The notes: generated from the sequence alone by a model not told the origin. A stretch of 64,000 bases of DNA from an uncultured Candidatus Saccharibacteria bacterium (GCA_964535385.1 CAZHSY010000003.1:18529-82528), one strand, 5' to 3'; shown: positions 12,095 to 46,674, numbered from the stretch's first letter. A program made the numbers and translations.

Positions 12095-12202
12095 CCCAGA
12101 ATATAAACTTCTGATCCATCTATTACTAATTATTGACTCGTACTAAAATTAATGTTTGAATAGTATGGTTATACGTCATTGCTCAATCATAAAGGAGCCC
12201 CC

Positions 12203-12589
12203 TTGAGCACCCAGACAGAGCACCTCGCCATCGATTTCGCTCATCCCCTCATCGTGCGTTGCGAAAACGGCGTGCCGGTACACATCGTCATGACCGTTTG
12301 CGATGGAACTGACTCGCGCATCAAGTACCCAGTCTACCTGAAGGACGAACATCCGGCCATCGAAAGCATCGTCAACAAACTGACGCTCGATCGCCTCGGC
12401 CGCAATATCCATCTCATGGGCCCGATCACGGTCAATGCCGACAACCCCCAGGATCTCCTTCGGCGACTGCGCAACCAGGTGCAGGACAACTTCAAGACCG
12501 TCAACCAACTCCCTCAGACCGATGCTCGCATCAACCGCATCATCGACTATGTCAGGTTGGCCCTGGAGCGCTTCTTCCCCGAGGCTTGA
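12203..12589 (+). CDS. Hypothetical protein (128 aa) in a higher-GC insertion between rpsJ and rplC
   Basis: TTG start preceded by AAGGAG with 5-nt spacing. The ORF-track start is 12179. GC is about 56% by eye, against about 50% in the flanking genes. An intrinsic terminator follows. No family was recognised. Confidence 0.55.
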   Translation: MSTQTEHLAIDFAHPLIVRCENGVPVHIVMTVCDGTDSRIKYPVYLKDEHPAIESIVNKLTLDRLGRNIHLMGPITVNADNPQDLLRRLRNQVQDNFKTVNQLPQTDARINRIIDYVRLALERFFPEA

Positions 12590-12605
12590 GCAAGCCTCAT
12601 TCCCT

Positions 12606-12643
12606 GCCACCTCCACCCCGTGTGAAGGTGGCGCATTTTTTTT
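12606..12643 (+). terminator. Intrinsic terminator (stem GCCACCT/AGGTGGC followed by T8)
   Basis: Hairpin plus a T-run directly after the plus-strand ORF. Confidence 0.6.
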
Positions 12644-12660
12644 ACTAAAAAACTCTCGCT

Positions 12661-12872
12661 CGCGTACATTCTGGTACGGTGTCGATCCTACCTGGCGGTA
12701 AAGGGTTCTTCTGAGTGATGCTAGGTAATAAACCTCCTAAACTGGAAAAGGCCTGTTTAGGAGAATGCTGCAATAGACAAACAGAAAAGCAGATCGTAAG
12801 GCGTACATGGTGGTACGGTGTCGATCTGCTTTTCTAGTTTAACGACTTACAGCGCCTGATATAACAGGCCGA
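12661..12872. repeat. Structured intergenic repeat, copy C1, lying between the rpsJ stop and the insertion
   Basis: Contains two GCGTAC-N6-GGTACGGTGTCGATC cores, at 12661–12686 and 12799–12824. Block GGGTTCTTCTGAGTGATGCTAGGT lies at 12702–12725. A perfect 12-bp inverted repeat (GAAAAGCAGATC/GATCTGCTTTTC) flanks the second core. An outer inverted repeat is GGCCTGTT/AACAGGCC. Aligns block-for-block with C2. Confidence 0.7.
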
Positions 12873-12875
12873 AAG

Positions 12876-13196
12876 TTACATTTTGATTTCAATATCCACG
12901 CCGGCTGGCAGCGACAAATTCATAAGGTTATCAATGGTCTTCGGAGTCGGTTCGGTGATATCAATCAACCGCTTGTGGGTTCGCATCTCAAAGGTCTCTT
13001 GGCTGTCTTTGAAAATGTGCGGGCTACGCACCACGGTAGTGGTGTTGCGATCAGTTGGTAGCGGTACGGGGCCAGCGACTTGAGCGCCGGTCCGTACGGC
13101 TGTATCAATGATCTGCTTAGCTGACTGATCAATGACCTTGTTGTCATAGGCCTTGAGTCGGATGCGAATGCGTTGAGCGGTTTTTTCGTTCGGCAT
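12876..13196 (-). CDS. rpsJ: 30S ribosomal protein S10
   Basis: 106-aa ORF resembling S10. It starts 5 nt after the tuf stop. Confidence 0.95.
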
Positions 13197-13201
13197 AGTG
13201 T

Positions 13202-14383
13202 TTACTTGGTGATCTTGGTCACGACACCAGCACCAACGGTGCGGCCGCCTTCACGAATCGCGAAGTTCAGACCATCATCCATGGCGATTGGAGCCAAGAG
13301 CTTGATTGAAGCGTTAATGTTATCACCTGGCATAACCATCTTAGTACCTTCTGGAAGCTTAACTTCACCAGTTACATCGGTGGTACGGAAGTAGAACTGT
13401 GGCTTGTAACCGTCTACGAAAGGAGTGTGGCGTCCGCCTTCTTCCTTAGTCAAGACGTAGATTTCAGCCTCAAACTCGGTGTGAGGAGTAATCGAGCCTG
13501 GCTTAACGATAACCTGACCACGCTCAATCTGTGAACGCTCAATACCACGGAGGAGGAGACCAACGTTATCACCGGCTTGACCCTCGTCAAGCAACTTACG
13601 GAACATCTCAACACCAGTTACGGTAGTCTTCTGTGTGTCCTTGATGCCGACAATTTCTACTTCTTCGTTGACCTTCACGATACCAGTCTCGATCTTACCG
13701 GTCGCAACAGTACCACGGCCTTTGATCGAGAAGACGTCTTCGATTGGCATCAAGAATGGCTTATCGAGATCACGCTTTGGCTCTTCGAAGAAGTCATCCA
13801 TAGCCTTCACGAGTTCCATAATTGAGTCCTCAGCAGCTTCATCGCCTTCGAGAGCCTTCAAGGCAGAACCCTTAACGATAGGGGCATTCTCGTCGAAGCC
13901 GTTCTTCTCGAGCAATTCACGAATTTCCATCTCTACGAGTTCAGCCAATTCTGGATCAGCCATGTCCATCTTGTTCATGTAGACCATGATGGCTGGTACG
14001 CCAACTTGGCGAGCCAAGAGAACGTGCTCACGAGTCTGAGGCATAGGGCCATCAGCAGCTGATACCACGAGGATAGCACCATCAACCTGAGCTGCACCGG
14101 TGATCATGTTCTTCACATAGTCGGCGTGACCTGGCATATCAACGTGAGCGTAGTGACGCTTGTCTGATTCGTATTCCTGGTGAGAAGTAGCGATGGTAAT
14201 ACCGCGCTCGCGCTCTTCTGGAGCCTTGTCGATCTCGTCGTAATTAATTGGTTTGTTTACGTCTGATGGCAACCGCTTAGCCAAAACGTGGGTAATGGCA
14301 GCAGTTAAGGTAGTCTTACCATGGTCAACATGCCCCATAGTACCGACGTTTACGTGTGGTTTGCTGCGATCAAAATTTGCCAC
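13202..14383 (-). CDS. tuf: Elongation factor Tu
   Basis: 393-aa ORF with [17 protein letters not shown] and NKMD motifs. Confidence 0.97.
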
Positions 14384-14503
14384 GAATGTTTCTCCTTAAC
14401 TCTCAATATATTTTCTTATGATTTGCTTAAAGCCTGGTGGTCACCGAAAAATGACCTGCAAGGCAAGCAGGACTGGTCTAGTATATCGAGAAAACTATGA
14501 CTT

Positions 14504-14537
14504 GTAAAGGGCAAAATGTCGCCGGATTTAACTCGGG
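14504..14537. terminator. Bidirectional hairpin (AAATGTCGCC…GGCGACATTT flanked by A and T runs) between fusA and tuf; possible attenuator
   Basis: Perfect 10-bp stem with a 13-nt loop, flanked by AAAA on one side and TTTTT on the other. Confidence 0.4.
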
Positions 14538-14579
14538 CGACATTTTTCAGCACGACAGACACGCTACGGTGCATCTCGT

Positions 14580-16688
14580 CTATTCAGAGACGGCTGACTT
14601 ACCACTCTTGCCGATGAGTTCTTCGGCAATATTACGTGGAACTTCTGCGTAGTGATCAAATTCCATCGAGTAGTTGGCTCGCCCCTGAGTCATCGAACGC
14701 AAGGTCGTCGCATAGCCAAACATCTGCGAAAGTGGCACGAAGGCATCGATAATCTTAGCGCCCTGGCGATCAGACATCTGCTCGATACGGCCACGCTTGG
14801 AGTTAACATCACCAACCACGTCACCCATGAATTCTTCTGGGGTTGTTACCTCAACCTTCATAACTGGCTCGAGAATGACTGGGTCAGCCTTACGTACACC
14901 AGCTTGAAGTGCTAATGAACCAGCAATCTTAAAGGCCATTTCTGATGAGTCAACTTCGTGATACGAACCGTCATAAAGCTTGGCCTTGACGTCAACGACT
15001 GGGTATCCAGCCAAGACACCATTACCCATGGCTTCCTTAATGCCCTCATCGACTGGCTTAATGTATTCACGCGGCACAGCTCCACCAACGATAGCGTTTT
15101 CAAATTCATAGGTTGGCTTATCACCTTCAACGTCATCAGCATGTACGAGTGGGCAAATTTCGAGCCAGACATGACCATACTGACCACGGCCACCAGACTG
15201 ACGAACAAATTTACCTTCGGCTTCAACGGTCTTACGGATGGTTTCGCGATAAGCCACTTGCGGAGTACCGATATTAGCTTCAACCTTGAACTCACGCTTC
15301 ATCCGGTCAACCAGTACGTCGAGGTGCAGCTCGCCCATACCGGCGATCAAGGTTTGGCCGGCTTCGTTATCAGAGCTAACTCGGAAGGTTGGGTCTTCTT
15401 CAGCCAAACGAGATAGAGCCAGCGACATTTTCTCTTGGTCAGCCTTGGTCTTTGGCTCAACAGCAATCTGAATAACTGGCTCTGGGAAGGTAATTTGCTC
15501 GAGAATAACTGGGTGGCCCTCAGCACTTAAGGTGTGTCCAGTCATGGTGTTTTTGAGACCAACAGCGGCAGCAATTTCACCGGCGTAGACTTCTTGGACT
15601 TCTTCGCGATTATTGGCGTGCATACGCAAGATACGGCCAATTCGCTCCTTCTGCCCGGTAGAGCTATTGAGTACATATGAGCCGGACTTTAACGTCCCAG
15701 CGTATACCCGGAAGAAACAGAGCTTACCAACAAATGGGTCGGTAGCAATCTTGAAGGCCAGACCAGCAAATGGAGCATCATCGGCTACTTTAAGTACTTC
15801 TTGTTCGCCGGTCTTCTCGTTCTCAGCCAAGGGCGGCGTGATATCCAGCGGGTTTGGCAGATAGTCAACCACGATGTCGAGTAACTTCTCAACGATCACG
15901 CCACGTCCATCACCACCAGAAACGATGAAAAATTCACCAGTCAAAACGCTCTTGCGAATGACTGATTTGATTTCTTCTAAGGTTAATTCACCACCTTCAA
16001 GGTATTTTTCGAGGAGGCTGTCATCGATCTCAACAGCAGCTTCAATCAAATGATTACGGTAGCGCTCGACCTTTTCTTTCATGTCTTCAGGGATGTCGAT
16101 CTCAACCAGTTCTTTATCGGTGTAGTCTTTATAGCTATAGGCTTTTTGCTCAATGACATCGATGATGCCGTTGATTTCTTGCTCAAAACCGATTGGCAAG
16201 TGGATTGGGTAAGCCCGCTTGGTCAAACGTGCATGAATCGAGTCCAGACTCTTGTAGAAGTCGCCACCGGTCTGGTTAATCTTATTGATGAAGCAGATAC
16301 GTGGCACGCCATACTTATCAGCCTGACGCCAAACGGTCTCGGATTGTGGCTCAACACCCATCTTGCCGTCGAAGACGGTCACTGCACCGTCCAGGACACG
16401 CAGGGAACGCTCGACTTCAACAGTAAAGTCGATGTGGCCAGGAGTATCAATGATATTGATGCGCTTGCCGTTCCAGAAACAAGTCGTGGCTGCAGAAGTG
16501 ATCGTAATACCCCGTTCTTGTTCTTGTTCCATCCAGTCCATAGTTGCCTCACCCTGGTGCACTTCGCCAATCTTGTGGGTTTTTCCAGTGCGATACAAGA
16601 CGCCTTCCGTAACGGTAGTTTTACCGGCATCAATGTGAGCAATAATTCCAATATTTCGGGTATCTTCGAGAGAATATTCGCGGGCCAT
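14580..16688 (-). CDS. fusA: Elongation factor G
   Basis: 702-aa ORF with a GTPase domain (AHIDAGKTT) and EF-G domains II to V. Confidence 0.97.
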
Positions 16689-16913
16689 AGTGTTCCTACT
16701 TATGCTTTAAAAATGATAGTCAAATTGACGAAAAAATAAGCGCGAACAAGCGCTTGTTACGTGTATTTTACCAGGTTGACCACTTCCACGCAATGCTACT
16801 CATGAAAAGGCTATTGACAGATATACGCTAGGAAAGTATGATCTGGTTCCCAGAAGACAACAGGGTTAACTGGTGTGCTCCGTACATCGGAATATTGAAC
16901 GAGGAGTAACCTC

Positions 16914-17267
16914 ATGCGTACCAAGACAAGTAAGCAATTTCGACTCCTCGCCGTCGCCATCATGGCGACGCTCGGCGGACTGACCTTCGGGGTCAGCAAC
17001 GCTGGTGCGGCGAGCAGCTTCCTCAGGAATGACAAGTGGCTGGCGGTCTACTCGCCTGCCTGTGGTGCCATCGGCTGCCCCTATGGTCCGGGCTATATGG
17101 TCAAGGACAATACGGGATTCACGATGGTGTGCTGGGCAGATGGCCCCTGGGTGAACGGCAACTACAACACCAACCGCTGGTTCCGTGGCCGTGTCAACGG
17201 CATCAGTGGTCAGGTCTGGGTCCCGGCATCCTACGTCTTCAATCAGACGCGAGTCGGCCACTGCTGA
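16914..17267 (+). CDS. Small secreted Cys-containing protein (117 aa), possibly SH3b-like
   Basis: N-terminal signal peptide (MRTKTSKQFRLLAVAIMATLGGLTFGVSNAGAASS). The mature part has Cys and Gly/Trp-rich segments ending …GQVWVPASYV, reminiscent of bacterial SH3 domains. A GAGGAG ribosome-binding site precedes it. GC is about 58% by eye. Confidence 0.6.
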   Translation: MRTKTSKQFRLLAVAIMATLGGLTFGVSNAGAASSFLRNDKWLAVYSPACGAIGCPYGPGYMVKDNTGFTMVCWADGPWVNGNYNTNRWFRGRVNGISGQVWVPASYVFNQTRVGHC

Positions 17268-17275
17268 TCAACACG

Positions 17276-17322
17276 AGGCTTCTTGTGTGTTCTTTCTCGG
17301 ACACACAAGAAGCCTTTTCTAA
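17276..17322 (+). terminator. Strong intrinsic terminator (14-bp perfect stem AGGCTTCTTGTGTG/CACACAAGAAGCCT followed by TTTCT)
   Basis: Lies directly after the plus-strand ORF and abuts the 3' end of the AAA+ gene. Confidence 0.7.
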
Positions 17323-17323
17323 T

Positions 17324-19774
17324 CTACGAGGCATCGACTTGCACGAGATCTTCTTTCGAAATTGTAATTAGTTGTCCTGACTTGATCTGACCGGCCAGCA
17401 TCCGCTGCGCAATTACATCTTCCACAAACCGCTGAAGAGCTCGTCGCATCGGTCGAGCACCCATACGTGGATCATTTCCCTTTTCGACCATGAAAGCTAG
17501 CGCCTCAGGAGTCATGGCGACTGTGATGTGTCGACTAGCAAGTTGTTTATTAAGGTTCTGCAGCTGAATACCAACTACCTGCTGAAGTTCCTCCGGTTTA
17601 AGTGGGCGGAACATCGTAATGTCATCAAAACGGTTTAAGAGTTCTGGGCGGAACAGCTTCTGGGATATAACCAAGTCGATCAAAGCATCATGTTTGGTCT
17701 CGAGCTCAACCCCATCGCTCACCCACTGCCGGATCTGCTCTGCACCGGCATTGGAGGTGGCAATAATGATAGCTTCTTTAAAGCTAACAACCTTGCCAGC
17801 AGTGTCAGTTAAGCGACCTTCATCGAGCATTTGAAGTAAGAGATTAAGGAAGTCAGGATGGGCCTTCTCAATCTCATCCAGCAGCACGACGCTGGCGGGT
17901 TTCATTCGAACCTGTTCGAGGAAGGCTGACCCAGCTGAGGTCTCGGCGGCGGCATTCAGTAAGCGATTGATATCACTCGGGTTCTGATACTCTGACATAT
18001 CTAGGCGGATCATGTTTTGCTCATCACTAAAGTACACAGCCGCCAGTGATCGAGCCAACTCGGTCTTACCAACACCAGTCGGGCCAAGAAAAAGAAAACT
18101 ACCAACCGGTCGCTTGGGGTCGCGCACTCCAGTCCGAGCTCGCCGCAAGGAAGACGCCACAGCTTTGACAGCCGTATTTTGGTTGATCATACGCTCATGA
18201 ATTAAATCCTCGAGCTTAAGTAGGGTCTGAGCCTCATTACTGCCCTGCTCAACAACTCCAGTCTTAACACCCGTACGGCTCTCGACGGCCTGATTGACTG
18301 ATTGTTCAGTAACTCTGCCTTCGACAGCATAATTTAAACTACTCATGAGCAAGTCAATCGCTCGACCCGGTTGAGCTTTTTCACCCAAGAAGCGATTCGA
18401 CAGCTCAATAGCTTGCTTGAGCGCCCGATAGGTGATGACTAGGCGGTGTTGGTTCTCAAAATCAAAGGCCACGTCCTGAAGGATCTGAAAACAAAGCTCG
18501 TCGGTCACTTCTGGCAACTGCAATTTATTAAGCATTCCGACCAGCTGGCCGTTGATCTGGGCGAATCGAGTCCATTCTTCATCGGTAAAACCAAAGATCA
18601 TTGGCAAGTGCGTTTTTTCTACGATTGGCTGCAAAATCCGAGTTGCATCAATGGCTCCAGGTTTATTTTCGAAGAACAAACTGGCATCTTCAAAGTACAG
18701 GATGACATTCTTAGCTCGCACAGCGTCATTCATCATTTTTGTGAAGATCGCTTCGACAGATTCATTCTTACCAGCACTGGTAATGGCCGTGGCTGAAACC
18801 GACATCATCTTGCGATAGGTCAACTTACCCGCCGGCATACCGGTGAGGATCTTCTCGGCAAACCGATACACCAACGTCGTCTTACCGCTGCCAGTGGCGC
18901 CGATCAGAGCCACATTGGTGCGGGCTGGCTGATTGAGTAATTGCACAAACTGATCAAGCATCTCCTCGCGACCATAAGCCGAGAAGCTCCGATGGCCAGC
19001 TTCAATCTCGTCGGATAGATTTGCTGCGAACTGGTCAAGATAATTAGTATAGCCAGCTGCGAAGTCGCGACCAATTCCACCAAAGCTCTCTCGAGCCCGA
19101 CGCTCTAAGCGATCGCGCTCGATATGCTCAAGCCAGTTCAAACCAAATACCAGATCTTGTTCGGAGATCTCAAAAGTCCCCAGCCAACCGGGCTGTTCAC
19201 GCTCTACTTCTAAGAGGCCGGCTACAAGAATCGTGCCACCATTAATGAACTGACTACCCACCCGCTGCATCAGCGAGCCACTCAAGCTGTAGAGCTGATC
19301 AGGGGTAAGCTTAGTAATGACAGCCGCGGCCGCTTGTAACGTCTGATCTGTTAGCTCCAAGTGCGATATAACATAGTGCGCCTGCCATGTGCCTTGAGCA
19401 GCCTGCCAGATGGCATTTACATCACTGTGTCGTGACAGGCGCACGGTGAGCTCAGGTGATAATACATCGGGAATATTGGTCATATTGCGCCGCGCTAGCC
19501 AGTCTGGCCCGAACTGATCGAGGCCCCAGCTGGAATAAAGTCCCAACATCGCGATCGGAGCACCAGGTACAAGCAATAAGATCGCGATCTTCTGGCCAAG
19601 TAGATACCCCATGACAGCCGTCAGCCATAGTAGTCCACCAATCACCAGTAGAGCCGTATGTAAAACCGGCGACATGAGTGAATGCATAGCCTTTAGCCGC
19701 CGGCGTCTAGCCGAGCTCTGCCAGCTGAGCTGCGGGGTGGCTTGATTCGGGGTCGCATTGACTGTTTGATCCAT
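17324..19774 (-). CDS. Membrane-anchored two-domain Hsp100/Clp-like AAA+ ATPase (about 816 aa)
   Basis: Two N-terminal transmembrane helices. D1 has Walker A GATGSGKT and an altered Walker B (ILYFED). D2 has Walker A GPTGVGKT, Walker [14 protein letters not shown], sensor-1 IIIATSN and the GARPMRRA arginine-finger region. By eye there is no IGF/LGF ClpP-docking loop and no GYVGY pore loop. The start is chosen at the Met whose ATG overlaps the upstream gene's TAA (TAATG). The ORF-track start is 19834. Confidence 0.8.
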   Translation of the reverse strand: MDQTVNATPNQATPQLSWQSSARRRRLKAMHSLMSPVLHTALLVIGGLLWLTAVMGYLLGQKIAILLLVPGAPIAMLGLYSSWGLDQFGPDWLARRNMTNIPDVLSPELTVRLSRHSDVNAIWQAAQGTWQAHYVISHLELTDQTLQAAAAVITKLTPDQLYSLSGSLMQRVGSQFINGGTILVAGLLEVEREQPGWLGTFEISEQDLVFGLNWLEHIERDRLERRARESFGGIGRDFAAGYTNYLDQFAANLSDEIEAGHRSFSAYGREEMLDQFVQLLNQPARTNVALIGATGSGKTTLVYRFAEKILTGMPAGKLTYRKMMSVSATAITSAGKNESVEAIFTKMMNDAVRAKNVILYFEDASLFFENKPGAIDATRILQPIVEKTHLPMIFGFTDEEWTRFAQINGQLVGMLNKLQLPEVTDELCFQILQDVAFDFENQHRLVITYRALKQAIELSNRFLGEKAQPGRAIDLLMSSLNYAVEGRVTEQSVNQAVESRTGVKTGVVEQGSNEAQTLLKLEDLIHERMINQNTAVKAVASSLRRARTGVRDPKRPVGSFLFLGPTGVGKTELARSLAAVYFSDEQNMIRLDMSEYQNPSDINRLLNAAAETSAGSAFLEQVRMKPASVVLLDEIEKAHPDFLNLLLQMLDEGRLTDTAGKVVSFKEAIIIATSNAGAEQIRQWVSDGVELETKHDALIDLVISQKLFRPELLNRFDDITMFRPLKPEELQQVVGIQLQNLNKQLASRHITVAMTPEALAFMVEKGNDPRMGARPMRRALQRFVEDVIAQRMLAGQIKSGQLITISKEDLVQVDAS

Positions 19775-20139
19775 TACAAACCTGCAATCCCTAGTGCAAT
19801 GGCAATAAAAGGTATAATTGGAAAGACTAGCCAAAGCACAAACAGCACACTAGCCGCCAGAAACAGTAGCGCTGTGCCCATAAGCCAAGCGACAATAAAG
19901 ATCATTCGGATAATAAATCCGATCAAGCGGGCTACTAGATTCATAACCATGGCTTGCATCATCTGATCTATGCCCTGACCGCCTTCGACCCGGTCTTCTT
20001 TCCATGGCGCGAAGAGTGTACGTAGCATCTGCTTCACACTTAAGCTGTAGTACAGTTTTCGGGTACTATCTTTGGCAGACTGCAAGACATGCAGCCAGCC
20101 CGGTCCGTACCACCAGGTAAGCATATCCGTTATCAGCAT
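19774..20139 (-). CDS. Small membrane protein (121 aa) with two C-terminal transmembrane helices, translationally coupled to the AAA+ ATPase
   Basis: Soluble N-terminal region of about 70 aa followed by two hydrophobic helices. Its stop overlaps the AAA+ start by 1 nt. Confidence 0.6.
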   Translation of the reverse strand: MLITDMLTWWYGPGWLHVLQSAKDSTRKLYYSLSVKQMLRTLFAPWKEDRVEGGQGIDQMMQAMVMNLVARLIGFIIRMIFIVAWLMGTALLFLAASVLFVLWLVFPIIPFIAIALGIAGL

Positions 20140-20184
20140 GATTCTATTTTACACGAGCTCGAGTTTTAGTACAGATAGCACTAC

Positions 20185-20212
20185 AAAAAGAAAACCCCCT
20201 ATTGCTAGGGGG
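20185..20212 (-). terminator. Intrinsic terminator in the minus sense (stem CCCCCTA/TAGGGGG followed by a U-run)
   Basis: Overlaps the stop codon of the small Cys-rich protein gene. In the minus sense the stem is followed by TTTTCTTTTT. Confidence 0.6.
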
Positions 20213-20525
20213 TGATAGATCGAGCTAGTTCGGTCGCAACAATACGACGAGGCAGCTTGTTGCCACGTGGCAGTCGCCACGGCTGAGTGCTGAGGTAATC
20301 ACCGTGAGGCTTTCCCAGTGCTTCGTAGCACTCCTCGTGATAGTGTTCAACTCGGTCCCAACGTGGTTGGTCGTTTGAGTCACGAACGTAGATGTTGCAA
20401 ATGGCTTGGCGCCGTTTGACCTTGGCCCTGAATTTCACACGCTCACCACAGTGAGCACAGTTGACAGTGCTGCCAGCTTCGATCATGCGTAGGACGGCTC
20501 GCGTCCTGGGCTGTGTTGCCGTCAT
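20205..20525 (-). CDS. Small Cys-rich (CxxC-containing) protein, 106 aa
   Basis: Cys/His pattern (CAHCGERV…C…HYHEEC). It lies immediately downstream of rpsG. GC is about 55% by eye. Confidence 0.55.
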   Translation of the reverse strand: MTATQPRTRAVLRMIEAGSTVNCAHCGERVKFRAKVKRRQAICNIYVRDSNDQPRWDRVEHYHEECYEALGKPHGDYLSTQPWRLPRGNKLPRRIVATELARSITP

Positions 20526-20630
20526 GGACGTGAGTTCCTTTCGCTTATTCCTGATGTTCAGGTTTTGCTATATTACAACTTTTATTAAATTAATGCAATA
20601 GATGAACGCTGAGCAGAGACTTTCTAGATC

Positions 20631-20850
20631 ATAAAAGGCCCGTTTAGCAGGATGTTGTAGTAGGCAAAACAAAAACCGGATCTAAGACATGCTCTAAACA
20701 AATAAGTCTGATTATCCTCGCGGCCAAGACCAGTTTAGCGAAATGCTCCGCTAGGCTTAACCAAAAACTCCTCGTAAGGCGTACTTTAACGTACGGTGTC
20801 GAGGAGTTTTTGGTGTAAACGACGCTGAGCGTTCGATATAACTGGTCGCT
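20631..20850. repeat. Structured intergenic repeat, copy C2, directly after the rpsG stop
   Basis: 5' block AAAAGGCCCGTTTAGCAGGATGTTGTAGTAGGCAAAACAAAAACCGGATC aligns with C1. A 14-bp perfect inverted repeat (CCAAAAACTCCTCG/CGAGGAGTTTTTGG, 20761–20814) encloses the core GTAAGGCGTACtttaacGTACGGTGTCGA. The 3' block TAAACGAC…GATATAACTGGTCG aligns with C1. Confidence 0.7.
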
Positions 20851-20852
20851 GT

Positions 20853-21329
20853 CTAGTAACGGGCGAAGTGGGCGAAGGCGCGATTAGCCTCAGCCATCTG
20901 GTGCGTATCTTGTTTCTTCTTAATAGCATCGCCCTGATTGTTGTAAGCATCGAGAAGCTCATTAGCTAGCAAGATATCAAAGCTCTTGCCTTCCTTACGA
21001 CGAGCCGAGTCGAGCATCCAGATCATAGCGTAGTGAATCTTGCGATCTGGTTTCACTTCCATTGGAACTTGGTAATTTGCACCACCAACACGGCGAGAAC
21101 GAACTTGTACATTTGGGCTAGCATTCTTAACTGCACCTTCAAAGACTTCCATAGGATCCTTCTTAGCCTTCGTGGCGGCCTGATCGAGAGCTGCATATAC
21201 CAAGCGCTCAGCCGTACGCTTCTTGCCTTCTTTCATAACTTTATTAATCATACGAGTAACCAGTACTGAGTTGTACTGCAAGTCTGGCTTGAGTTGACGC
21301 TTGAGAGAAGCGGTTTTCTTACGTGGCAT
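20853..21329 (-). CDS. rpsG: 30S ribosomal protein S7
   Basis: 158-aa ORF resembling S7. Confidence 0.95.
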   Translation of the reverse strand: MPRKKTASLKRQLKPDLQYNSVLVTRMINKVMKEGKKRTAERLVYAALDQAATKAKKDPMEVFEGAVKNASPNVQVRSRRVGGANYQVPMEVKPDRKIHYAMIWMLDSARRKEGKSFDILLANELLDAYNNQGDAIKKKQDTHQMAEANRAFAHFARY

Positions 21330-21332
21330 AGT

Positions 21333-21755
21333 TTAGTCCTTCTTGCCCTTTTCGAGCTTAGCGCCGTACTTACTGCGACCCTGTTTACGCTGAGCTACAC
21401 CAGCAGTGTCAAGGCTACCACGTACTACGTGATAACGAACACCAGGAAGGTCCTTAACACGACCACCACGCACCAAGACCACACTGTGCTCCTGGAGGTT
21501 GTGACCGATACCGCCGATATAGGCAGTAACTTCCATACCATTTACCAAACGGACACGAGCAACTTTACGAAGCGCTGAGTTAGGCTTCTTTGGGGTCTGG
21601 GTGAAAACCTTCGTACACACACCGCGCTTAAATGGGTTAGCAGTTGTCGTAGCCTTACCTTTCAGGGCGTTGGTGGTCCGCATCAAAGCTGGGGCCTTAC
21701 TCTTAGAAGTGGCCTGCTTACGGGGTTTGCGAATGAGTTGATTGATTGTTGGCAT
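21333..21755 (-). CDS. rpsL: 30S ribosomal protein S12
   Basis: 140-aa ORF with conserved …KRGVCTKV…[16 protein letters not shown]… It carries an N-terminal insertion of about 10 aa relative to E. coli S12. Confidence 0.95.
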
Positions 21756-21814
21756 AAAATTTAGGATTTAGTTTTTTAGAAACTAGGAATTAGCTCTAAA
21801 AAAGCAACTAGGTT

Positions 21815-21843
21815 AGTTTAACAGGTTCAGACGTGTTGGTCAA
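21815..21843 (-). promoter_or_regulatory. Candidate promoter for rpsL (TTGACC-N17-TAAACT in the minus sense)
   Basis: Found by reading the reverse complement of 21811–21846. Confidence 0.4.
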
Positions 21844-21864
21844 CAGACGCGACAGACATGTACC

Positions 21865-21980
21865 GGGTCTTTTTGAGTGATGCTGGGTGCCGGCGTAGTT
21901 CTGAATGATTCTGAGGCGTACATGATAGTACGGTGAGGGATCATTCAGAACGCACAACGGTGCCCAGCGCGCTCAAAATG
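21865..21980. repeat. Structured intergenic repeat, copy C3: a nested hairpin of about 115 nt between rpoC and rpsL
   Basis: Outer stem GGGTCTTTTTGAGTGATGCTGGGTGCCG pairs with CGGTGCCCAGCGCGCTCAAAA, using G·U pairs. Inner perfect 12-bp stem GTTCTGAATGAT/ATCATTCAGAAC. The loop carries the core GAGGCGTACatgataGTACGGTGAGGG. No U-tract follows on either strand. Confidence 0.7.
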
Positions 21981-21986
21981 GGCCGC

Positions 21987-24900
21987 TTACTTATCCTCCT
22001 CGGACCTAAAGCCGGTTCCGACTGGAATAAGACGTCCAATAATGACGTTCTCCTTCAGACCACGAAGGTGGTCAGTCCGGCCACGTAATCCAGCGCCGAT
22101 CAAGACTTTCATAGTTTCCTGGAAGGATGCGGCTGAGAGCCAACTGTCAGAGCTGATGGAAATCTTAGAAATCGGCATCAGGAGCTGCTCATAGGTAGCT
22201 GGCTTTTTCTTAGCCTCAAGCGCATCGGCGTTAGCTTCGCTCAATGACGTCTTCGAGATAATATCGCCAGCGATAAACTCGGTGTCATTTGGCTCTTCGA
22301 TGCGCACGCGGCTAAACATCTGGCGAATAATCACCTCGATGTGCTTAGATGCAATCGTCTGGCCCTGACTCGAGTAGATAGCTTGCACTTCGTCAACGAT
22401 ATAACGCTGTACAGCTTCCTCGCCAAGCAAACGGTGCATGTCCTGCAAGTTGACAGAACCCTGGGTAAGTCGTTGACCGACGGTCACTAGGTCACCATTC
22501 TTGATGTGTAATGTAACGTAATCCGGAATAGTGTACTCCTTGACGTTACCACCTTCATGACTGAGCTCTATAACGGTCTTTCCAACGCTAATGCGACCGT
22601 CGGCACCAGCTTTAATAGTCCGCTTACCGGTCTCGCTTACAGCCAGGACATCACCCTTCTTGACTATGGCGCCGGTCTTGACGCTTATCTTCATGCCGGC
22701 CTTGATGTCGTACTTGGTAATCTTCAGATCAGCTGGAGCGATGCGCAGAACTTGCTTGCCATCAATGGTCTTCAGGGTAGCTATGCCATCGACTTCAGCC
22801 AACAAAGCCTCACCACGAGGGTTACGAACTTCGAAGATTTCTTCAACACGAGGCAAACCTTGGGTGATATCAGCAGCCGAAGCAACACCACCGGCGTGGA
22901 ACGTACGCATCGTCAGTTGAGTGCCTGGTTCACCAATTGACTGAGCAGCCATAATACCAACTGCTTCGCCCATCTCAACTTCAGCCCCATGGGCCAGATC
23001 AACACCGTAACAGTGCTTACAAATACCCCAGCTCAGGGTGCATTTCATGATGCTCCGGATAACCACTTCGTCGATACCGGCATCGACGATTGCCTGAGCA
23101 ATTTCATCGGTGATTGGCGCATTGGCTTTTACGAGTGTCCTGTCGTCGTCTTTAACAGCCTTTGCGCTATATCGACCGACAATCCACGGGATGAACGAGT
23201 CGAGTCCAGCAGCCCGGGCTTCGGAGCCAGTTACTTTATAACCAGTCTTGTCACCACAGTCATCGGCTGAAATCAGAACATCCTGAGCGACATCAACCAA
23301 ACGACGAGTCAGGTAACCTGATTCAGCAGTCTTGAGAGCTGTATCGGTAAGACCCTTACGAGCACCGTGTGAGGAGATGAAGTATTCGAGAATATTCAAA
23401 CCTTCTTTATAGTTGCTCTTCACCGGCAGCTCAATAGTGCCTCCAGTTGAGTTGAGCACCAAGCCCTTCATACCGGCCATCTGGTTAGCCTGGCCAACCG
23501 TTGCACGAGCACCAGACTCGATGTCCATAGCTAGGGTTGAGCTGTTTGGATCGAGCTCCTCGGCCAGCTCAGCTTCGATCTTTTCACCGACTTCTTTCCA
23601 TATTTCGATAGTGCGCTCTTTGCGCTCATCGTTGGTGATCAAGCCTTGCTGATACTGAGTTGTGACGGCCTGGGCCTTAGTCTCGCCTTCTTCGAGAATC
23701 TTGACCTTGCCGGCTGGTGCATGGAGGTCGTCCATACCCAGTGAGAAACCAGACTCAGTGGCGTACTGATAGCCAATCTCCTTGATGGCATCGGCAGTTA
23801 GAGCGGTCTGCTCGCCGCCAAATAGTACGAAGATTTCGGCTAAAACAGCCTTGAGGCGAGATTTGGTCATCGCATCATTTTGGAAGGTTAGACCTTCTGG
23901 AAGATGTTCGTTGAAGATCAAGCGACCAACTGAGGTCTCAATGACTTCGCCATCCAAACGAACCTTAACACCGGCCCGCAAGTGAACAATATCCTGCTGA
24001 TAGGCCATCATTGCCTCATCGCGGGAACTGAAGCTCTTGCCTTCACCCTGTGCGCCGTCTTGAATGTTGGTCATGTAGAAACAACCGAGTACAATCTCGT
24101 GACTTGGGTTAATGATTGGCTCACCGCTAGCTGGCTTGAGCAAGTTGTTCGAGGCCAGCATAATCTCGCGAGCTTCTTTCTGAGCTGCGTCTGACAGCGG
24201 CACATGGACAGCCATCTGATCACCATCGAAGTCAGCGTTGAAGGCTGCACAGACCAATGGATGAAGCTGAATTGCCTTACCTTCGATGAGAACCGGGCGA
24301 AAAGCCTGAATCGACAGACGGTGCAAGGTAGGAGCACGGTTGAGAAGTACGTACTTATCGGTAATGACTTCTTCGAGAGTATCCCAAACTTCAGTCCGAG
24401 CTCGTTCGATCATTCGAGCCGCACTCTTGACGTTGTGAGCGTATTCTCTCTCGATAAGCTTTGAGATAACAAACGGCTTGAAGAGTTCTAGGGCCATCAT
24501 CTTCGGAATACCACACTCGTCGAGCTTGAGGTGAGGACCAACTACGATCACCGAACGACCTGAGTAGTCGACGCGCTTACCAAGCAAGTTCTGACGGAAG
24601 CGGCCCTGCTTACCCTTAAGAAGGTCGGTCAAGCTCTTGAGCTTCTTACGTGAACCACCAACCGCGGTGACAGCCCGCTCACGGCGTGAGTTGTTGTCCA
24701 TCAAAGCATCGACAGCTTCCTGAAGCATGCGCTTTTCATTGCGGCAAATGACTTCTGGAGCTTCGAGTGAGTAGAGCTTCTTCAAGCGATTGTTACGGTT
24801 AATAACCCGACGATAGAGGTCATTCAAGTCTGAAGCGGCAAAGCGACCACCATCGAGCTGAACCATTGGACGCAAATCTGGCGGAATGACTGGTAGTTCC

Positions 24901-25805
24901 TGCATGACCATTGAGTCTGGCTTAATCTTGGCTTGCTGCATGCCTTCAACGATCTTGAGACGCTTGAGAGCTTTGCGCATACGCTGGCCACTGGTTGAAG
25001 TTGATTCCTCGCGCAGCTCTTCGGCCAACCTATCGAGATCGATTTCGACGAGAAGATCACGAATAGCCTCGGCACCGATACCAGCCTTGAAAACATTACC
25101 GTATTTAATATTAAGATCACGATAAGCACCTTCGGGCAACAATTGATATTTAGCTAGGCCTTCGAGCTCATTTTTAGCACCCAAGTAGTTAACCTCTAGG
25201 TCGGCTAGTTCCTTCTGGCCAACTTCATCAAGTCCTGATTCATCCTTGGCTTCATACTTGGTCAGGATTTCTTTGCGACGGCTCTGATAATCTTGGGATA
25301 GCTCTTCGAGAGAATTGGTACGGGCATCCTCATCGACATCTTTGACGACGAAGTTAGCGAAATAGGTGACTCGTTCGAGATCGCGCACGCTCATATTCAG
25401 AAGTGTACCAATTGAACTTGGCGTCCCACGAAGGAACCAAATGTGCGTTACAGGAACTGCCAAATGAATGTGCCCCATACGCTCACGGCGAACGATAGCC
25501 CGCGTGACGAGCACACCGCACTTATCACAAGTAATACCCTTGTAGCGGATCCCCTTGTACTTACCGCAATAACATTGCCAGTCTTTGGTTGGACCAAAAA
25601 TCTTTTCGCAGAAGAGGCCGTCTTTTTCTGGCTTCTGAGTCCGGTAGTTAATTGTCTCAGGCTTAGTGATTTCACCATGGCTCCAATCAAGAATTTGTTC
25701 GGAACTAGCGACCGTTAAACGGATGGCCGAAAAATCAATTGACGGGAGTGCCTGCGCATCGTGCTGTATATCTGATCGGGTTTCTGTTTGAGTTCCAGCT
25801 TCCAT
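21987..25805 (-). CDS. rpoC: DNA-directed RNA polymerase beta' subunit
   Basis: 1272-aa ORF with the NADFDGD catalytic motif and the N-terminal zinc-binding Cys cluster. Confidence 0.97.
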
Positions 25806-25806
25806 C

Positions 25807-28800
25807 TTAGACCTCCTCTCCTTCTACTTTAGCTTCTTCTACAGCGATAGTCTCAAAATCATCGGCCATGACACCAGCGTCGGATAGATCCACAACGGCG
25901 ACATCAGGAGCGGTACCTTCCAAAAGTTCATCATCAGCCAACTCAATGGCTTCCTCTTGTGTCACCTTATCGAGCAAGGTATCGGCGTCGATTTCGGCGT
26001 TCGCACTATCAAGTTCGACGGCAAACCCGAGTGACTGCAGCTCTTTCACGAGCACGTTGAAGCTCTCAGGTACACGCGGCCCTTTGATCTGCTCGTTCTT
26101 AATGATGGCCTCATAGGCCTTGGAGCGACCAATGACGTCGTCGGACTTGATGGTGAGGATTTCTTGCAAACTATGAGCAGCGCCATAGGCCTCGAGCGCC
26201 CAAACTTCCATCTCTCCGAATCGCTGACCACCCATCATAGCCTTACCACCAAGCGGCTGCTGCGTAACCATGGCGTATGGTCCGGTTGAACGAGCGTGAA
26301 TCTTGTCATCAACCATGTGATGAAGCTTCAGCATGTACTTGTAGCCAATGGTTGTCTTCTGGTCGAATGGCTCACCGGTGTAGCCGTGATAGAGCTGTGC
26401 CTTACCATCTTCTGGCAATCCAGCTTTCTTGAGCTCTCCTTTGATCTGATCGATTGTCACGCCATCGAGAACTGGGCTGGCGACTTTGTAGCCAAGTGCC
26501 TGAGCCGCCCAACCAAGGTGGGTTTCGAGGATCTGACCGATATTCATACGAGCACCAATACCGAGTGGGTTTAAGACGATATCGACTGGTGTGCCGTCTT
26601 CGAGATACGGCATATCTTCGATTGGCATAACCTTTGAAATCACACCCTTATTACCGTGTCGACCAGCCATCTTGTCGCCAACCTGGATCTTGCGCAGTTG
26701 GGCAACAGCAATGTAGATCTGCTGTAAGACACCACTTGGAAGATCGTCGCCGTTCTCGCCAGAGAGAATCTTAATGCCAACAATCTTACCCTGCGAGCCG
26801 TTTGGCATGCGCAAGCTAGAGTCCTTAACCTCGCGAGCTTTCTCACCGAAGATCGCTCGGAGCAAGCGCTCTTCAGAGCTGAGTTCGGTCTCACCCTTGG
26901 GGCTAATCTTACCGATAAGAATGTCGCCAGCAGTAACTTCAGCACCGACGCGGATGATGCCGCTCTCGTCGAGATCTTTGAGCGCTTCGTCACCGACATT
27001 TGGAATGTCGCGGGTGACTACTTCTGGACCAAGCTTGGTATCACGAACGTCGATTTGGTGAGTCTCGATATGAACCGAGCTATAACGATCATCCTGAACA
27101 ATGCGCTCTGAAATGATGATGGCGTCTTCGAAGTTGTATCCGTCGAAGGCCATGAAAGCGACCAGGACGTTCTGACCGAGAGCCAGTTCACCGTCGACCG
27201 TCGACATACCATCAGCCAGCACGTCACCTTTCTTGATCTTTTCGCCACCAGTCACAACACAACGCTGGGTCATACCGGCTCCTTGGTTGGAGCGAATGAA
27301 ATTAAGCAGCTCATAGCTACGCTCTCCAAGCTTCTTGTACTTGACGACAATCTCCTGAGCGCTGGCGCGAATCACTTCGCCCTCATCCTCGGCCAAGATA
27401 ATTTGACCCGAGTCAGCTGCGACTTTGTGCTCGATACCAGTACCAACGATTGGAGCCTGTGGCTTCACGAGAGCAACAGCTTGCTTCTGCATGTTCGCAC
27501 CCATCAAAGCCCGTCGAGCGTCGTCGTGTTCCATAAATGGAATCAATGCGGCTGAGATACCAACCGTCTGAATTGAGGAAATATCCATGTATTGGACGTC
27601 ATCGGCTGAGAGTTCAGCAGCTTCACCACCAACCCCACGAGCTGAGACGACGGGATTTACAAATGAGCCATCTTCGTTAATTTTAATATTAGCTGGAGCA
27701 ATTACGGCATTTTCTTCGTCAAAAGCATCGAGGTAGACGACCTCCTTAGTTACATGTGCTTTCACTTGGACCTTGTCGAAACCAGCCTTCTCGATAGCCT
27801 TAGCAGTCACAGCAGTGATCTTCTCACCAGCTTTAACGATTACCTTGCCAGACTTGTCTTTAACCTGAAAACGAGCTGTCTCACCGGTTGCCTTAGCTGT
27901 CTCAACCTGGCTAACTACCCGCAGGTAAGGCGTTTCGATAAAGCCATACTCATTGACCCGAGCGTAACTGGCCATAGTCGAAACCAAACCGATGTTCGGT
28001 CCTTCTGGAGTCTCGATCGGACAAATACGACCATAGTGGGTGCGGTGGACGTCACGGACTTCAAAGCCGGCACGTTCGCGGTTCAAACCACCTGGTCCAA
28101 GCGCATTCAAACGACGCTTGTGGACGATTTCATCAAGTGGGTTAGTCTGCTGGAGGAACTGTGAGAGTTGGTGGGAAGCGTAGAATTCCTTCACGCTAGC
28201 AACAATCGGCCGAACATTAACCAAGAGAGCTGGAGTAACGGCATCTGGATCAGCTACAGACATACGATCCTTGACGATACGCTCCATACGAGCAATGCCG
28301 ACCCGGAAGCGTTGCTGGATTAATTCACCGACCATCTTCAGACGACGATTACCGAGGTGATCAATGTCTTCACTGGCGTGATTTTCGTTGGTCATGCGGA
28401 TGACTTCTTTGATAATACCTACAAAGTCCTCAACCCGAAGAATACGATTCTCGCGAGTGTTCTTGATATCAAAACCAAGTCGCTTATTGAGCTTGTAGCG
28501 ACCAACCTTCGAGAGATCATAGCGCTTGAAATCAAAGAACATAGAGTCGATGAGAGTTTTAGAGTTTTCAACGGTAGCTAGATCACCAGGGCGAATGCGT
28601 TTGTAGACTTCCATGAGAGCTTCGGCAGTTGAGCTTGAGGCATCCTTAGCGATAGTTTCTGCAATAAATCGAGTCTCACCAGTATCAACGTCGCTGAAAA
28701 GCTCGAGCAGTTCATTATCAGTACCAAAACCAAAAGCCCGCATAAGGGTTGTAACAGGAAGCTTGCGCTTGCGGTCGATCTTAACACTCATCACACCATT

Positions 28801-29301
28801 AGCACTGGTCTCGATCTCGAGCCAAGCACCGCGTGAAGGAATAATTTTAGCGCCGAAATTGCCACCTGGGCTATCATTTGTAAAGAAAACACCAGCACTA
28901 CGGACGAGCTGCGAAACTACCACGCGCTCAACACCATTGATGATGAAAGTTCCACGCTTGGTCATAACCGGGTAGTCGCCGAGGAAGATTTCCTGAGTGC
29001 GTACTTCACCAGTTTCCTTAATAAGGAGCTCCATATTGGCTCGCAAGCTAGCCTCGTAGGTTGCATTCTTTTCCTTAGCTACCATCTCGCTGAGCTTTGG
29101 CTCTTCGTAGTAGTAGTCTTTAAACGACAAGGCATACAACTTGCCAGTAAAGTCCTCTATTGGGCTAATTTCTTCAAAAAGTTCGGTCAAACCTTCTCGA
29201 ACAAACCAGTTGTAACTGGCTTGCTGGATTTCTACTAGGTTTGGCAGCGGCAAAATATCACTGTGTGGCTTTAAGTGCTTACGGTCGGCTGTTTTAGGCA
29301 T
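25807..29301 (-). CDS. rpoB: DNA-directed RNA polymerase beta subunit
   Basis: 1164-aa ORF with conserved beta-subunit blocks. It lies directly upstream of rpoC. Confidence 0.97.
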
Positions 29302-29349
29302 ACGCTTAACTTACTCTCCTTCGAATCAAGTGACACTCCTTCGCCTATC

Positions 29350-29405
29350 CGTGAACCCTCAGTGTGATGCAAGGAAGGTACTCGGAGATAATCTACCGAG
29401 TACGT
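29350..29405. repeat. Related structured element in the rpoB leader (copy C5, partial)
   Basis: GAACCCTCAGTGTGATGCAAGG resembles the GGGTTC…GAGTGATGCTAGG block. A hairpin GTACTCGG-N10-CCGAGTAC lies at 29378–29403. A CTAGGAAC motif lies at 29693–29706. Confidence 0.4.
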
Positions 29406-29742
29406 CCCCTGCCACTTTCGTCAAACAGCTAGGTGAAACAATGGATCTAATTAATGTAGTGAATAAAAACGTTTGTTTTGTAAAAACGAACTAATGGATG
29501 AGATGGCGACTCTCTGAAACTATCGAGGCAGGGTATCTAGACTTACGCGACAAACATTTTGCTCTAGGACGCAAAAAAACTCGCTCACAAAAAAGCGGTC
29601 TTGTATGGCGTTTTACGTAAGTCTAAGCATCCTCTTGTACCCTATTGTGATGGTTTGTGCGGCTCCTGTCAACAGTATTTGTGTAGTAAATAGGAACTAG
29701 GAATTCACTTCTATCGATTGGCTACAGTTCCTGGCTCCTAAC

Positions 29743-33780: not shown

Positions 33781-33865
33781 TATCAATATCTGGTGCGGAT
33801 GAAAGGACTTGAACCTTCACGCCTTGCGGCACCAGCTCCTAAGGCTGGCGTGTCTACCAATTCCA
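33781..33865 (-). tRNA. tRNA-Leu (anticodon TAG), type II with a long variable arm and an encoded CCA
   Basis: Reverse complement is GCGGATGTGGTGGAATTGGTAGACACGCCAGCCTTAGGAGCTGGTGCCGCAAGGCGTGAAGGTTCAAGTCCTTTCATCCGCACCA. Cloverleaf stems were identified by eye. The anticodon loop is CTTAGGA. Confidence 0.85.
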
Positions 33866-33875
33866 CCACATCCGC

Positions 33876-42773: not shown

Positions 42774-42775
42774 AT

Positions 42776-44113: not shown

Positions 44114-44149
44114 ACCCCTCTATTGTACCCCGTCAATCTGTGATCGACC

Positions 44150-46630: not shown

Positions 46631-46674
46631 AGAACCTCCTTTATAAACAATTACAAAAGGGAGGGCAACAGGCG

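Follow-up and report, generated by a model that had tools for sequence, protein, structure and literature searches.

The 64,000-nucleotide (nt) stretch analyzed here, referred to as the window, comes from an uncultured Candidatus Saccharibacteria bacterium (GCA_964535385.1 CAZHSY010000003.1:18529-82528) and carries, in gaps between ribosomal-protein, RNA-polymerase and other core genes, a family of long imperfect palindromes built around a conserved apical hairpin, the tip. The analysis covered the window and about 7 kb more of the source genome, obtained from exact-protein matches, in which no new copy was found. The window has a G+C content of 49.8%, nearly all of its genes are carried by the minus strand, and the GC skew of the plus strand is negative across its whole length. 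The closest relative of its S10 protein belongs to a Candidatus Saccharibacteria metagenome-assembled genome (82%), relatives of its S7 protein at 84-88% identity occur in Saccharibacteria-type contigs, and two Logan contigs (from SRR10761721 and SRR10761723) match the window at 99.6-99.8% identity. The genes that frame the elements are listed below. After the ClpB-like ATPase gene the order is fusA, tuf, rpsJ, an orphan open reading frame (ORF), rplC and the remaining S10/spc cluster.

12876-13196, minus strand: rpsJ
17324-19834, minus strand: ClpB-like ATPase gene, beside a block of small ORFs
20853-21329, minus strand: rpsG
21333-21755, minus strand: rpsL
21987-25805, minus strand: rpoC
25807-29301, minus strand: rpoB
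33791-33875, minus strand: tRNA-Leu, anticodon TAG, the sole Rfam or ARAGORN match in the window

Copies of the element in the window

Copies were scored with a full-length covariance model (R3), run over the window with filters off, with an apical model (R1) and with another model (R2). R3 recovered exactly six full copies at 77-112 bits and also matched the fragment C1a; the next matches were the reverse strands of the six copies, and everything else scored 10.6 bits or less. Four full copies lie on the plus strand and two on the minus strand, all of them intergenic. The sites are copies of one lineage-restricted family of imperfect palindromes, about 125-135 nt in length, in a clade of Saccharibacteria. 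The copies, their fragments and the adjacent signals are as follows.

12605-12648, plus strand: intrinsic-terminator-like hairpin followed by U8, recognized from its fold; 5' of the C1a/C1 cluster and 3' of the orphan ORF (12179-12589, plus strand)
12656-12685, plus strand: C1a, truncated copy; exact pattern match, local R1 match of 17 bits, R3 10.6 bits
12698-12730, plus strand: isolated extra 5' arm; direct repeat with 21860-21888
12744-12873, plus strand: C1, full element; R3 86.2 bits (E = 3e-21), R1 78.8 bits
20631-20700, plus strand: possible 5'-arm-like remnant (AAAAGGCCCGTTTAGCAGGATG...) upstream of C2, from by-eye likeness to the C1 5' arm
20722-20850, plus strand: C2, full element; R3 97.8 bits, R1 77.5 bits
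21815-21843, minus strand: rpsL promoter-like site TTGACC-17-TAAACT with TG, from a promoter scan
21860-21988, plus strand: C3, full element in the gap that separates the rpoC stop and the rpsL promoter; R3 111.9 bits
38570-38698, plus strand: E8, full but more degenerate element; R3 95.9 bits, R2 54.9 bits
41378-41506, minus strand: E5, full element; R3 77 bits
48126-48250, minus strand: E4, full element; R3 89 bits
53265-53325, plus strand: possible relic of a decayed copy (TAGGAACG..., TTACGGTGTCTGATTACCGC), flanked by the dnaE stop and a guanylate-kinase-like gene

An earlier sequence-only reading of this DNA had described a plus-strand core at four sites. The pattern GCGTAC-N6-GTACGGTG does occur exactly four times, always on the plus strand (12662, 12801, 20779 and 21916), against a shuffle mean of 0.16, and none of 100 shuffles reached four; the first of these sites, however, reads CGCGTAC and not GGCGTAC. 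Elsewhere in the window CGTAC-N6-GTACG is absent, except for a single one-mismatch chance match. The two copies reported in the opposite orientation are real (about 48172-48194 and 41429-41448), and E8 is a full copy that had gone unlisted. A partial copy at 53300 had also been placed in the reverse orientation; TACGGTG stands there on the plus strand, so the relic is oriented like C1-C3. This relic has a 20-nt match to E5 (90% identity), neither R1 nor R3 matches it, and its membership is uncertain.

The same reading had singled out a 24-nt block as a module. It is present at 12698-12726, 21860-21888 and about 48225 (minus strand), while its supposed degenerate occurrence at 29353 is not supported by R3. 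The block is the 5' arm of the long hairpin; since folding pairs it with a conserved 3' arm (...CCAGCGCGCTCAAAATGGGCC or ...CAGCGCCTGATATAACAGGCC), it is not a separate module.

Three pieces are clustered in the rpsJ spacer: the tip of the truncated C1a, an isolated 5' arm resembling that of C3, and C1 in full. C1a directly follows the plus-strand terminator, retains the tip hairpin CGTAC-ATTCTG-GTACG-GTGT with a middle stem of only 3 bp, and its local R1 match spans model positions 12-42. The isolated arm resembles the 5' arm of C3 more than that of C1, and the direct repeat between 12698-12726 and 21860-21888 has 79% identity. The assignment of the remnant at 20631-20700 as a further 5' arm is weak (R3 6.6 bits, E = 7.9).

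Structure and covariation

Each unit consists of three stacked helices, namely P1 (the arms), P2 and the tip. P2 is 12-15 bp long, differs in sequence in every copy and is almost always perfectly paired; nine copies have perfectly paired yet different P2 stems. The perfect outer stems reported earlier for C1, C2 and C3 measure 14, 15 and 15 bp, and 5 of 13 P2 positions differ between C1 and C2, each difference being compensated. The tip helix is a 5-bp CGUAC/GUACG of near-invariant sequence that closes a 6-nt loop of free sequence and is followed by GTG. Next to P2 the tip has either a tandem 5'-GA/5'-GA or a UAA bulge, then a G.U pair, and after it a position that is G.G, A.A, A.G or C-G depending on the copy. 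The features of the window copies are given below, with fold energies in kcal/mol.

C1: P1 GGCCTGTT.../...AACAGGCC; P2 AGAAAAGCAGATCG/CGATCTGCTTTTCT, with A and T tracts; tip TAAGG-CGTAC-ATGGTG-GTACG-GTGT; folds -52.6 (plus) and -53.3 (minus)
C2: P1 GACCAGTT.../...AACTGGTC; P2 ACCAAAAACTCCTCG/CGAGGAGTTTTTGGT; tip TAAGG-CGTAC-TTTAAC-GTACG-GTGT; folds -62.2 and -60.0
C3: P2 GTTCTGAATGATTCT/GGGATCATTCAGAAC, without a U tract; tip GAGG-CGTAC-ATGATA-GTACG-GTGA; folds -74.4 (plus) and -49.2 (minus)
E8: P2 of 8 bp; tip GAGG-CGGAC-ATGAA-GTACG-GTGA
E5: tip CCGTA-TATATAAAT-TACGG-TGAA; 12 G.U pairs; folds -61.4 on the GTACGGTG strand and -40.7 on its complement
E4: tip CCGTAT-ATGA-ATACGG-TGAA; folds -49.1 on the GTACGGTG strand and -37.3 on its complement

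C1, C2, C3, E4 and E5 each fold as a single hairpin of 115-135 nt, with z-scores of -5 to -9. The block-for-block alignment of C1 and C2 over about 125 nt holds, each being one long hairpin, and C3 is indeed a nested hairpin between rpoC and rpsL, about 120 nt long, with -74 to -78 kcal/mol and z = -8.4.

Pairing was examined in an alignment of the six window copies and in one of 10 sequences that included orthologues, each with 500 column shuffles and slid controls. In the six-copy alignment 83.9% of cells pair, compared to 68.4% in shuffles and 32-46% in slid controls; with 10 sequences the values are 84.9%, 64.4% and 33-44%. In both alignments the observed pairing lies above all 500 shuffles (0/500). 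Both sides have changed in 21 of 31 pairs among the six copies and in 24 of 30 among the 10 sequences, and paralogous copies are about 52-66% identical per alignment column. The six full copies, their fragments and this covariation bear out the claim of a genuine structured intergenic repeat family with compensatory variation around a conserved tip.

When both strands were folded independently, the GTACGGTG strand folded better in 9 of 10 copies. The difference is large in C3, E5 and E4, amounts to 2-7 kcal/mol in orthologues from other genomes, and is close to nil in the terminator-type C1 and C2. C3 has 8-9 G.U pairs, on the plus strand only, and C3 and E5 have one A.C mismatch each. Counted over the consensus pairs, there are 26 G.U against 9 A.C (p = 0.006), with two wobble columns common to most copies, so that the counts are partly non-independent. 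The bias tracks the orientation of the element (C3 on plus, E5 and E4 on minus) and not the chromosome strand, which, with the G.U excess, points to a folded single strand, either RNA or single-stranded DNA (ssDNA), rather than a duplex site or cruciform. Mutation bias as the cause of the G.U excess was dismissed by reasoning, given that the bias follows neither chromosome strand nor flanking transcription.

Position relative to genes

The base of P1 lies 4 nt from the rpsJ stop codon in C1, 5 nt from that of rpsG in C2 and 2 nt from that of rpoC in C3; in the related locus L119 it lies 1 nt from the rpsG stop (L-numbers denote loci in other genomes or contigs that were compared with the window). 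About 15-20 nt separate the 3' end of E5 from the stop codon of PBP1a, a gene carried by the opposite strand. In C1, C2, C3, E5 and the L119 copy the better-folding strand is antisense to the abutting gene (rpsJ, rpsG, rpoC, PBP1a and rpsG, respectively), while the sense orientation is found in E4 and in L120b, after clpP. According to Pfam, E4 is flanked by a UPF0102 gene and nusA, both in its own orientation. The same assignments give E8 two divergent neighbors, the PBP1a gene and a class-I (Trp/Tyr-type) tRNA synthetase gene. The element thus extends beyond the ribosomal and RNA-polymerase operon junctions to which it had been assigned, with copies upstream of nusA, on both sides of the PBP1a gene and in the clpP/MFS gap of L120.

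In L119, L120 and L126 the element stands between rpsG and a convergent gene, which places it at a convergent junction, since the gene on the element's strand converges on the ribosomal gene. C1 is probably also at such a junction. In the mRNA sense C3 is followed by the rpsL promoter-like site, which is conserved in the relative L086.

Distribution and inheritance in relatives

The tip recurs at corresponding places in four or five other Saccharibacteria. Copies with the same tip on different stems directly follow the rpsG stop in L119, L120 and L126 and occupy the syntenic spot in L110. L110 (42% G+C) was placed by tblastx on the rpsG side of a block of NUDIX, small-ORF, membrane-ORF and ClpB genes; it combines an identical tip with a new stem (GAATCGGACCG). 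L118 has a copy in the rpoC-rpsL spacer (2344-2473), the orthologue of C3, in a spacer of 231 nt as in the window, and L120 has an additional sense-oriented copy between clpP and an MFS gene. A metagenome scan with an 18-base core pattern gave eight matches, of which only L110 was genuine.

The element is absent from L083, L086 and L089 (S7 84-88% identical) over 20 kb of the syntenic region, and plain terminators follow rpsG and rpsJ there; a distant Saccharibacteria locus, L003, likewise has a plain terminator after rpsJ. L003 was the one Saccharibacteria locus from a scan of reference genomes based on S10, whose 79 other loci were mostly actinobacterial. At the rpsG site of L122/L123 the same P2 stem (CAAAAATACCCC/GGGGTATTTT) is closed by a plain 7-nt loop, TTGATGA, suggesting that P2 is a local terminator from which the tip was lost or to which it was gained.

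Orthologues share arm motifs, e.g. GATGCTCAGCAAGGCTTAC ... GTAAACG.CGCTGAGCG, that paralogues lack, and the copies would therefore have been inherited with the species. Given this inheritance at orthologous sites and the 52-66% identity among paralogues, the copies are old and not recent insertions of a miniature inverted-repeat transposable element (MITE).

Several public contigs stop close to the element: that of L110 ends inside it, and those of L120-L123 end about 90-360 nt after rpsG. Such ends would be expected if the assemblies of those genomes broke at a repeat present in several copies.

Neighboring genes and signals

The gene block after rpsG and the ORF after rpsJ had been interpreted as inserted cargo. 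The block is instead conserved Saccharibacteria synteny, present with or without the element, and the ORF after rpsJ is an orphan. The str operon in this clade is split between rpsG and fusA by a conserved, rearranging gene block (16866-20525 in the window; also in L083, L086, L089, L117, L119, L124 and L126). Its genes are a convergent ORF of 166-192 amino acids (aa) with no assigned function, a NUDIX gene, a small ORF, a membrane ORF, an ABC-F-like ATPase gene and a ClpB/ClpC-like AAA+ ATPase gene; the window version is without the convergent ORF, the NUDIX gene and the ABC-F gene. Two Clp-family AAA+ ATPases are encoded in the window, at 17324-19834 and 44150-46630. One is a canonical ClpC/ClpB with Clp_N, and the other, inside the split str operon, is a divergent paralogue without a Clp_N match; the two genes have a 46-nt stretch in common at 74% identity.

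The orphan ORF between rpsJ and rplC (12176-12616) reads as 136 aa on the plus strand or 146 aa on the minus strand. Apart from the same organism, no homologue of either frame was found among 5.8 billion proteins. Codon scores are ambiguous as to strand; a terminator follows on the plus strand, and public gene calls chose the minus strand.

A CTAG-rich motif (CCTAGTTYCTA on the minus strand, doubled in places) occurs at 21775-21800, 29685-29705 and 60760-60790, that is, in the upstream region or 5' untranslated region of rpsL, in the rpoB leader region and at a 221-aa gene (60076-60741). It includes CTAGGAAC, which had been counted as a module of the family; only the copy near 41459 is inside an element. 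The motif is separate from the hairpin family and could be a promoter-proximal or leader signal.

The rpoB 5' leader contains a stable hairpin (29340-29420, minus strand; -30 kcal/mol; stem GTACTCGG/CCGAGTAC), within which the 29353 site falls. The covariance model does not assign this hairpin to the family, and it may be a leader regulatory structure. Upstream of nusA (47965-48095, minus strand) a promoter-like TTGACA-17-TATACT precedes a hairpin of about 70 nt that ends in a U run, and its tail GCATTTTTTGACTAAAAAAC has 94% identity over 17 nt with the tail of the plus-strand terminator at 12637-12653. This hairpin may be a leader, an attenuator or a small RNA.

Proposed function and alternative explanations

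With moderate confidence, the family is read here as old dispersed palindromes of the REP/ERIC kind that act in RNA at gene 3' ends, the copies with A and U tracts serving as bidirectional terminators and the tip as a factor-binding site. One unit would have spread long ago to many intergenic sites, as REP or ERIC elements have, and would since have been inherited vertically, its pairing kept by compensatory change. Its action would be mainly in RNA at the 3' ends of genes. Where P2 has an A tract on one side and a U tract on the other (after rpsJ and rpsG, and after clpP in a relative), it is predicted to be a bidirectional intrinsic terminator that separates tandem or convergent transcription units. 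In copies without a U tract (rpoC-rpsL, upstream of nusA and beside PBP1a) the long hairpin could instead be a 3'-end barrier, a processing site or an insulator. The near-invariant tip would be the docking site of a candidate trans-acting factor. Because P1 begins 1-5 nt past the stop at rpsJ, rpsG and rpoC, a terminating ribosome would have to open it, which could link translation with what becomes of the 3' end.

The A-tract/stem ... stem/T-tract form of P2 is found in C1, C2, L119, L120a, L120b and L126. The plain terminators of the window, which are common, have the same A-tract/T-tract design, and other relatives have plain terminators at these junctions. A simple terminator scan misses all copies, since their loop exceeds 8 nt. 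The invariance of the tip, together with the absence of exact CGTAC-N6-GTACG from the rest of the window, suggests that something recognizes it.

Several observations weigh against this reading. C3, E4, E5, E8 and L118 lack a U tract and so are not canonical terminators. A terminator requires neither the outer helix P1 nor an invariant tip, and P1 covaries strongly although its distal arm would be untranscribed if P2 terminated efficiently. At rpsG, rpoC and PBP1a the mRNA would carry the weaker complement (-49 vs -74 kcal/mol in C3), since the better-folding GTACGGTG strand is antisense to the abutted gene. Furthermore, the spread of homologous 130-nt units to at least 7-8 unrelated loci is left unexplained, and no mobilizing enzyme was seen. 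The model accounts for neither P1 covariation, the antisense-strand folding preference nor the spread, and on these three points a mobile ssDNA element and small or antisense RNAs stay live rivals.

In one alternative the family would be a selfish ssDNA mobile element of the REPIN/RAYT or IS200/IS605-derived (PATE) type, whose GTACGGTG strand has to fold as ssDNA and whose terminator activity, if any, would be incidental; the tip hairpin with its 3' GTG would then be the recognition or cleavage site of an HUH (Y1) nuclease encoded elsewhere in the genome. Homologous units scattered over unrelated loci, partial and tandem copies in the rpsJ spacer, a patchy presence and absence among close relatives, and public contigs that break at the element or just past it all agree with such an origin. 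So do the better folding of one strand whatever the chromosome strand or flanking transcription, with G.U exceeding A.C, the invariant tip stem with a free loop, as is typical of nuclease recognition hairpins, and GTAC or GTAG before the 5' arm in about 7 of 12 copies (by reading), reminiscent of the GTAG that REPs carry. No Y1_Tnp or other transposase domain and no insertion sequence (IS) were present, however, among the window ORFs scanned. Paralogues at about 52-66% identity differ from the near-identical members of active REPIN or MITE populations, and their persistence at orthologous sites with compensatory change suggests host-level constraint. The folding strand is on plus in 6 of 8 copies, which by GC skew is not the lagging-strand template favored by IS200/IS605; a unit of about 130 nt with a single apical hairpin is unlike REP doublets and PATE ends; and the strong G.U bias of C3 is missing from its orthologue in L118. 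A selfish ssDNA origin is considered unlikely.

Distinctly less probable still are independent or cis-antisense small RNAs, i.e. hairpins of about 130 nt made from the GTACGGTG strand with a protein bound to the conserved tip. The copies abutting rpsJ, rpsG, rpoC and PBP1a would in that case regulate in antisense or, as fail-safe terminators, stop convergent transcription from entering essential operons. The better folding of the GTACGGTG strand in 9 of 10 copies would be accounted for, as would its tandem sheared 5'-GA/5'-GA and G.U pairs, the latter kept at the tip in 9 of 10 copies and in the arm in 7 of 10. A same-strand gene lies upstream in C1, L119, L120 and L126, and read-through from it would end at the U tract of P2, but no gene stands upstream on that strand at C3, L118 or C2. 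Against such RNAs are also the lack of a conserved promoter at a fixed distance upstream of any copy and the symmetric fold energies of the terminator-type copies.

A double-stranded DNA site, with CGTAC-N6-GTACG as the operator of a dimeric DNA-binding protein (a regulator, nucleoid or partition protein) and the palindrome secondary, is very improbable: half-sites are invariant around a fixed 6-nt spacer of free sequence in 10 copies from 5-6 genomes, with 11 bp from center to center, and promoter-like sites follow about 70-100 bp downstream of C3, E4 and E8, but the site never occurs outside a hairpin context, is located at the 3' ends of genes and within terminator loops without a constant distance from promoters, has spacers that vary in E4 and E5 (N4 and N9 between longer half-sites), and the P1/P2 covariation and G.U pairs indicate a folded single strand.

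The reading as old palindromes acting in RNA could be carried further. The tip might be a dedicated RNA-protein recognition module of a system specific to Saccharibacteria or the Candidate Phyla Radiation (CPR), grafted onto terminator stems and long 3' hairpins to mark or control gene 3' ends; this extension is doubtful. If true, transcripts of ribosomal-protein, RNA-polymerase and other core genes could, for example, be terminated or antiterminated with the help of a factor or undergo targeted 3' processing, and the strand bias would stem from regulated transcription, antisense or convergent, in genomes that are very compact.

Saccharibacteria and other CPR members have genomes of about 1 Mb and few regulators, and to our knowledge almost nothing is known of their RNA biology. 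The family offers a handle on how Saccharibacteria end, insulate or process the transcripts of rpsJ, rpsG, rpoC and other core genes. The invariant tip predicts a binding partner that could be retrieved, and the covariance model can be used to annotate the element in genomes.

Comparison with known families

No known family matched the element. A scan of the whole window with Rfam 15 at gathering thresholds returned only the tRNA-Leu (33794-33875), E-value scans over C1, C2/C3 and 38400-48400 gave chance matches far below gathering scores, and ARAGORN likewise reported only the tRNA-Leu; the elements are not tRNA or rRNA fragments. Searched by blastn in distant mode, 5,426 complete E. coli genomes gave no match to C2, and plasmid and phage collections gave none either. 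Searches of the literature on intergenic repeats, MITEs, REPs and non-coding RNAs in Saccharibacteria or CPR/Patescibacteria yielded no relevant description.

Several candidate identities were rejected. Homology to viral contigs came down to 12 chance matches to the 15-base core, all without stems. Integron attC sites do not fit, as the conserved part is the tip, the base is without R''/R' core sites, and the adjacent genes are conserved synteny and not cassettes. A kink-turn of the L7Ae type would combine features that the copies keep apart: those with the tandem 5'-GA/5'-GA (C3, E8, L118, L120a and L120b) are without a bulge, and those with the UAA bulge (C1, C2, L110 and L126) continue with GG or AA, not GA. 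Likenesses to a T-box, group II intron domain V and a guanidine-III riboswitch were unsupported by sequence comparison and Rfam. For a DNA-uptake sequence, TACGGTG occurs 16 times in the window; about half of these are in elements or fragments, and it would thus not be enriched genome-wide. A small conserved peptide was discounted, the loop ATG being present in some copies only and without a conserved frame. The same applies to an associated protein, as the ORF beside C1 has no homologue in either frame and is unrelated to the convergent ORF family near the rpsG copies.

Dispersed palindromic repeats such as REP, ERIC and Correia elements are well studied in a few cultivated lineages. The sequence-only reading had likened the sites to REP, BIME, Correia or MITE-like elements. 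The family is REP/ERIC-like in kind, while a recent MITE insertion does not agree with the age of the copies, and no target-site duplication, parent IS or transposase was found. A direct repeat flanking the copies was not evident by eye, and the spacers of relatives are too diverged to align for an empty-site comparison. Correia elements of Neisseria and other MITEs (RUP, BOX, RPE) are, like the present copies, short non-coding dispersed repeats with inverted-repeat arms; they are transcribed together with adjoining genes, form hairpins of the RNase III type and can have terminator or promoter activity. The present family differs in the lack of a detected duplication or parent IS, in its old and diverged arms and in having the tip rather than the termini conserved.

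Bidirectional intrinsic terminators share with the P2 of C1, C2, L119, L120 and L126 the succession of A tract, G+C stem, loop, stem and U tract between tandem or convergent genes. Here, however, the loop is a conserved structured module of 24-25 nt, a covarying outer helix of about 35 bp is added, several copies are without a U tract, and the units are homologous across loci.

REP/BIME/REPIN elements (with RAYT, a Y1 HUH enzyme) are likewise extragenic palindromes at gene 3' ends, with clustered partial copies and long persistence at orthologous sites. REPs have a conserved 5' GTAG, and GTAC or GTAG is often found at the 5' edge here; REPs can also act as terminators or 3' stabilizers. Liang, Rudd and Deutscher reportedly found in 2015 an effect on translation for REPs lying no more than about 15 nt from a stop codon. 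In contrast to REPs of 20-40 nt, and to REPINs of about 70-110 nt made of two inverted REPs, both with conserved stems, the present element is a single unit of 130 nt in which one tip is conserved and the stems vary. Its copies are far more diverged, and no RAYT came to light in the 64 kb examined.

The ERIC/IRU sequences of Enterobacteriaceae and Vibrio are similar in being imperfect palindromes of about 127 bp that form one long hairpin, lie between genes in either orientation, often just after stops, and have diverged copies. In Yersinia, ERIC is said to have orientation-dependent effects on mRNA stability. The two show no sequence similarity, and the present family belongs to the phylum Patescibacteria and carries an invariant apical module on a variable, perfectly paired and often terminator-like middle stem. 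This combination of a conserved structured tip with variable, terminator-like stems is its unusual feature.

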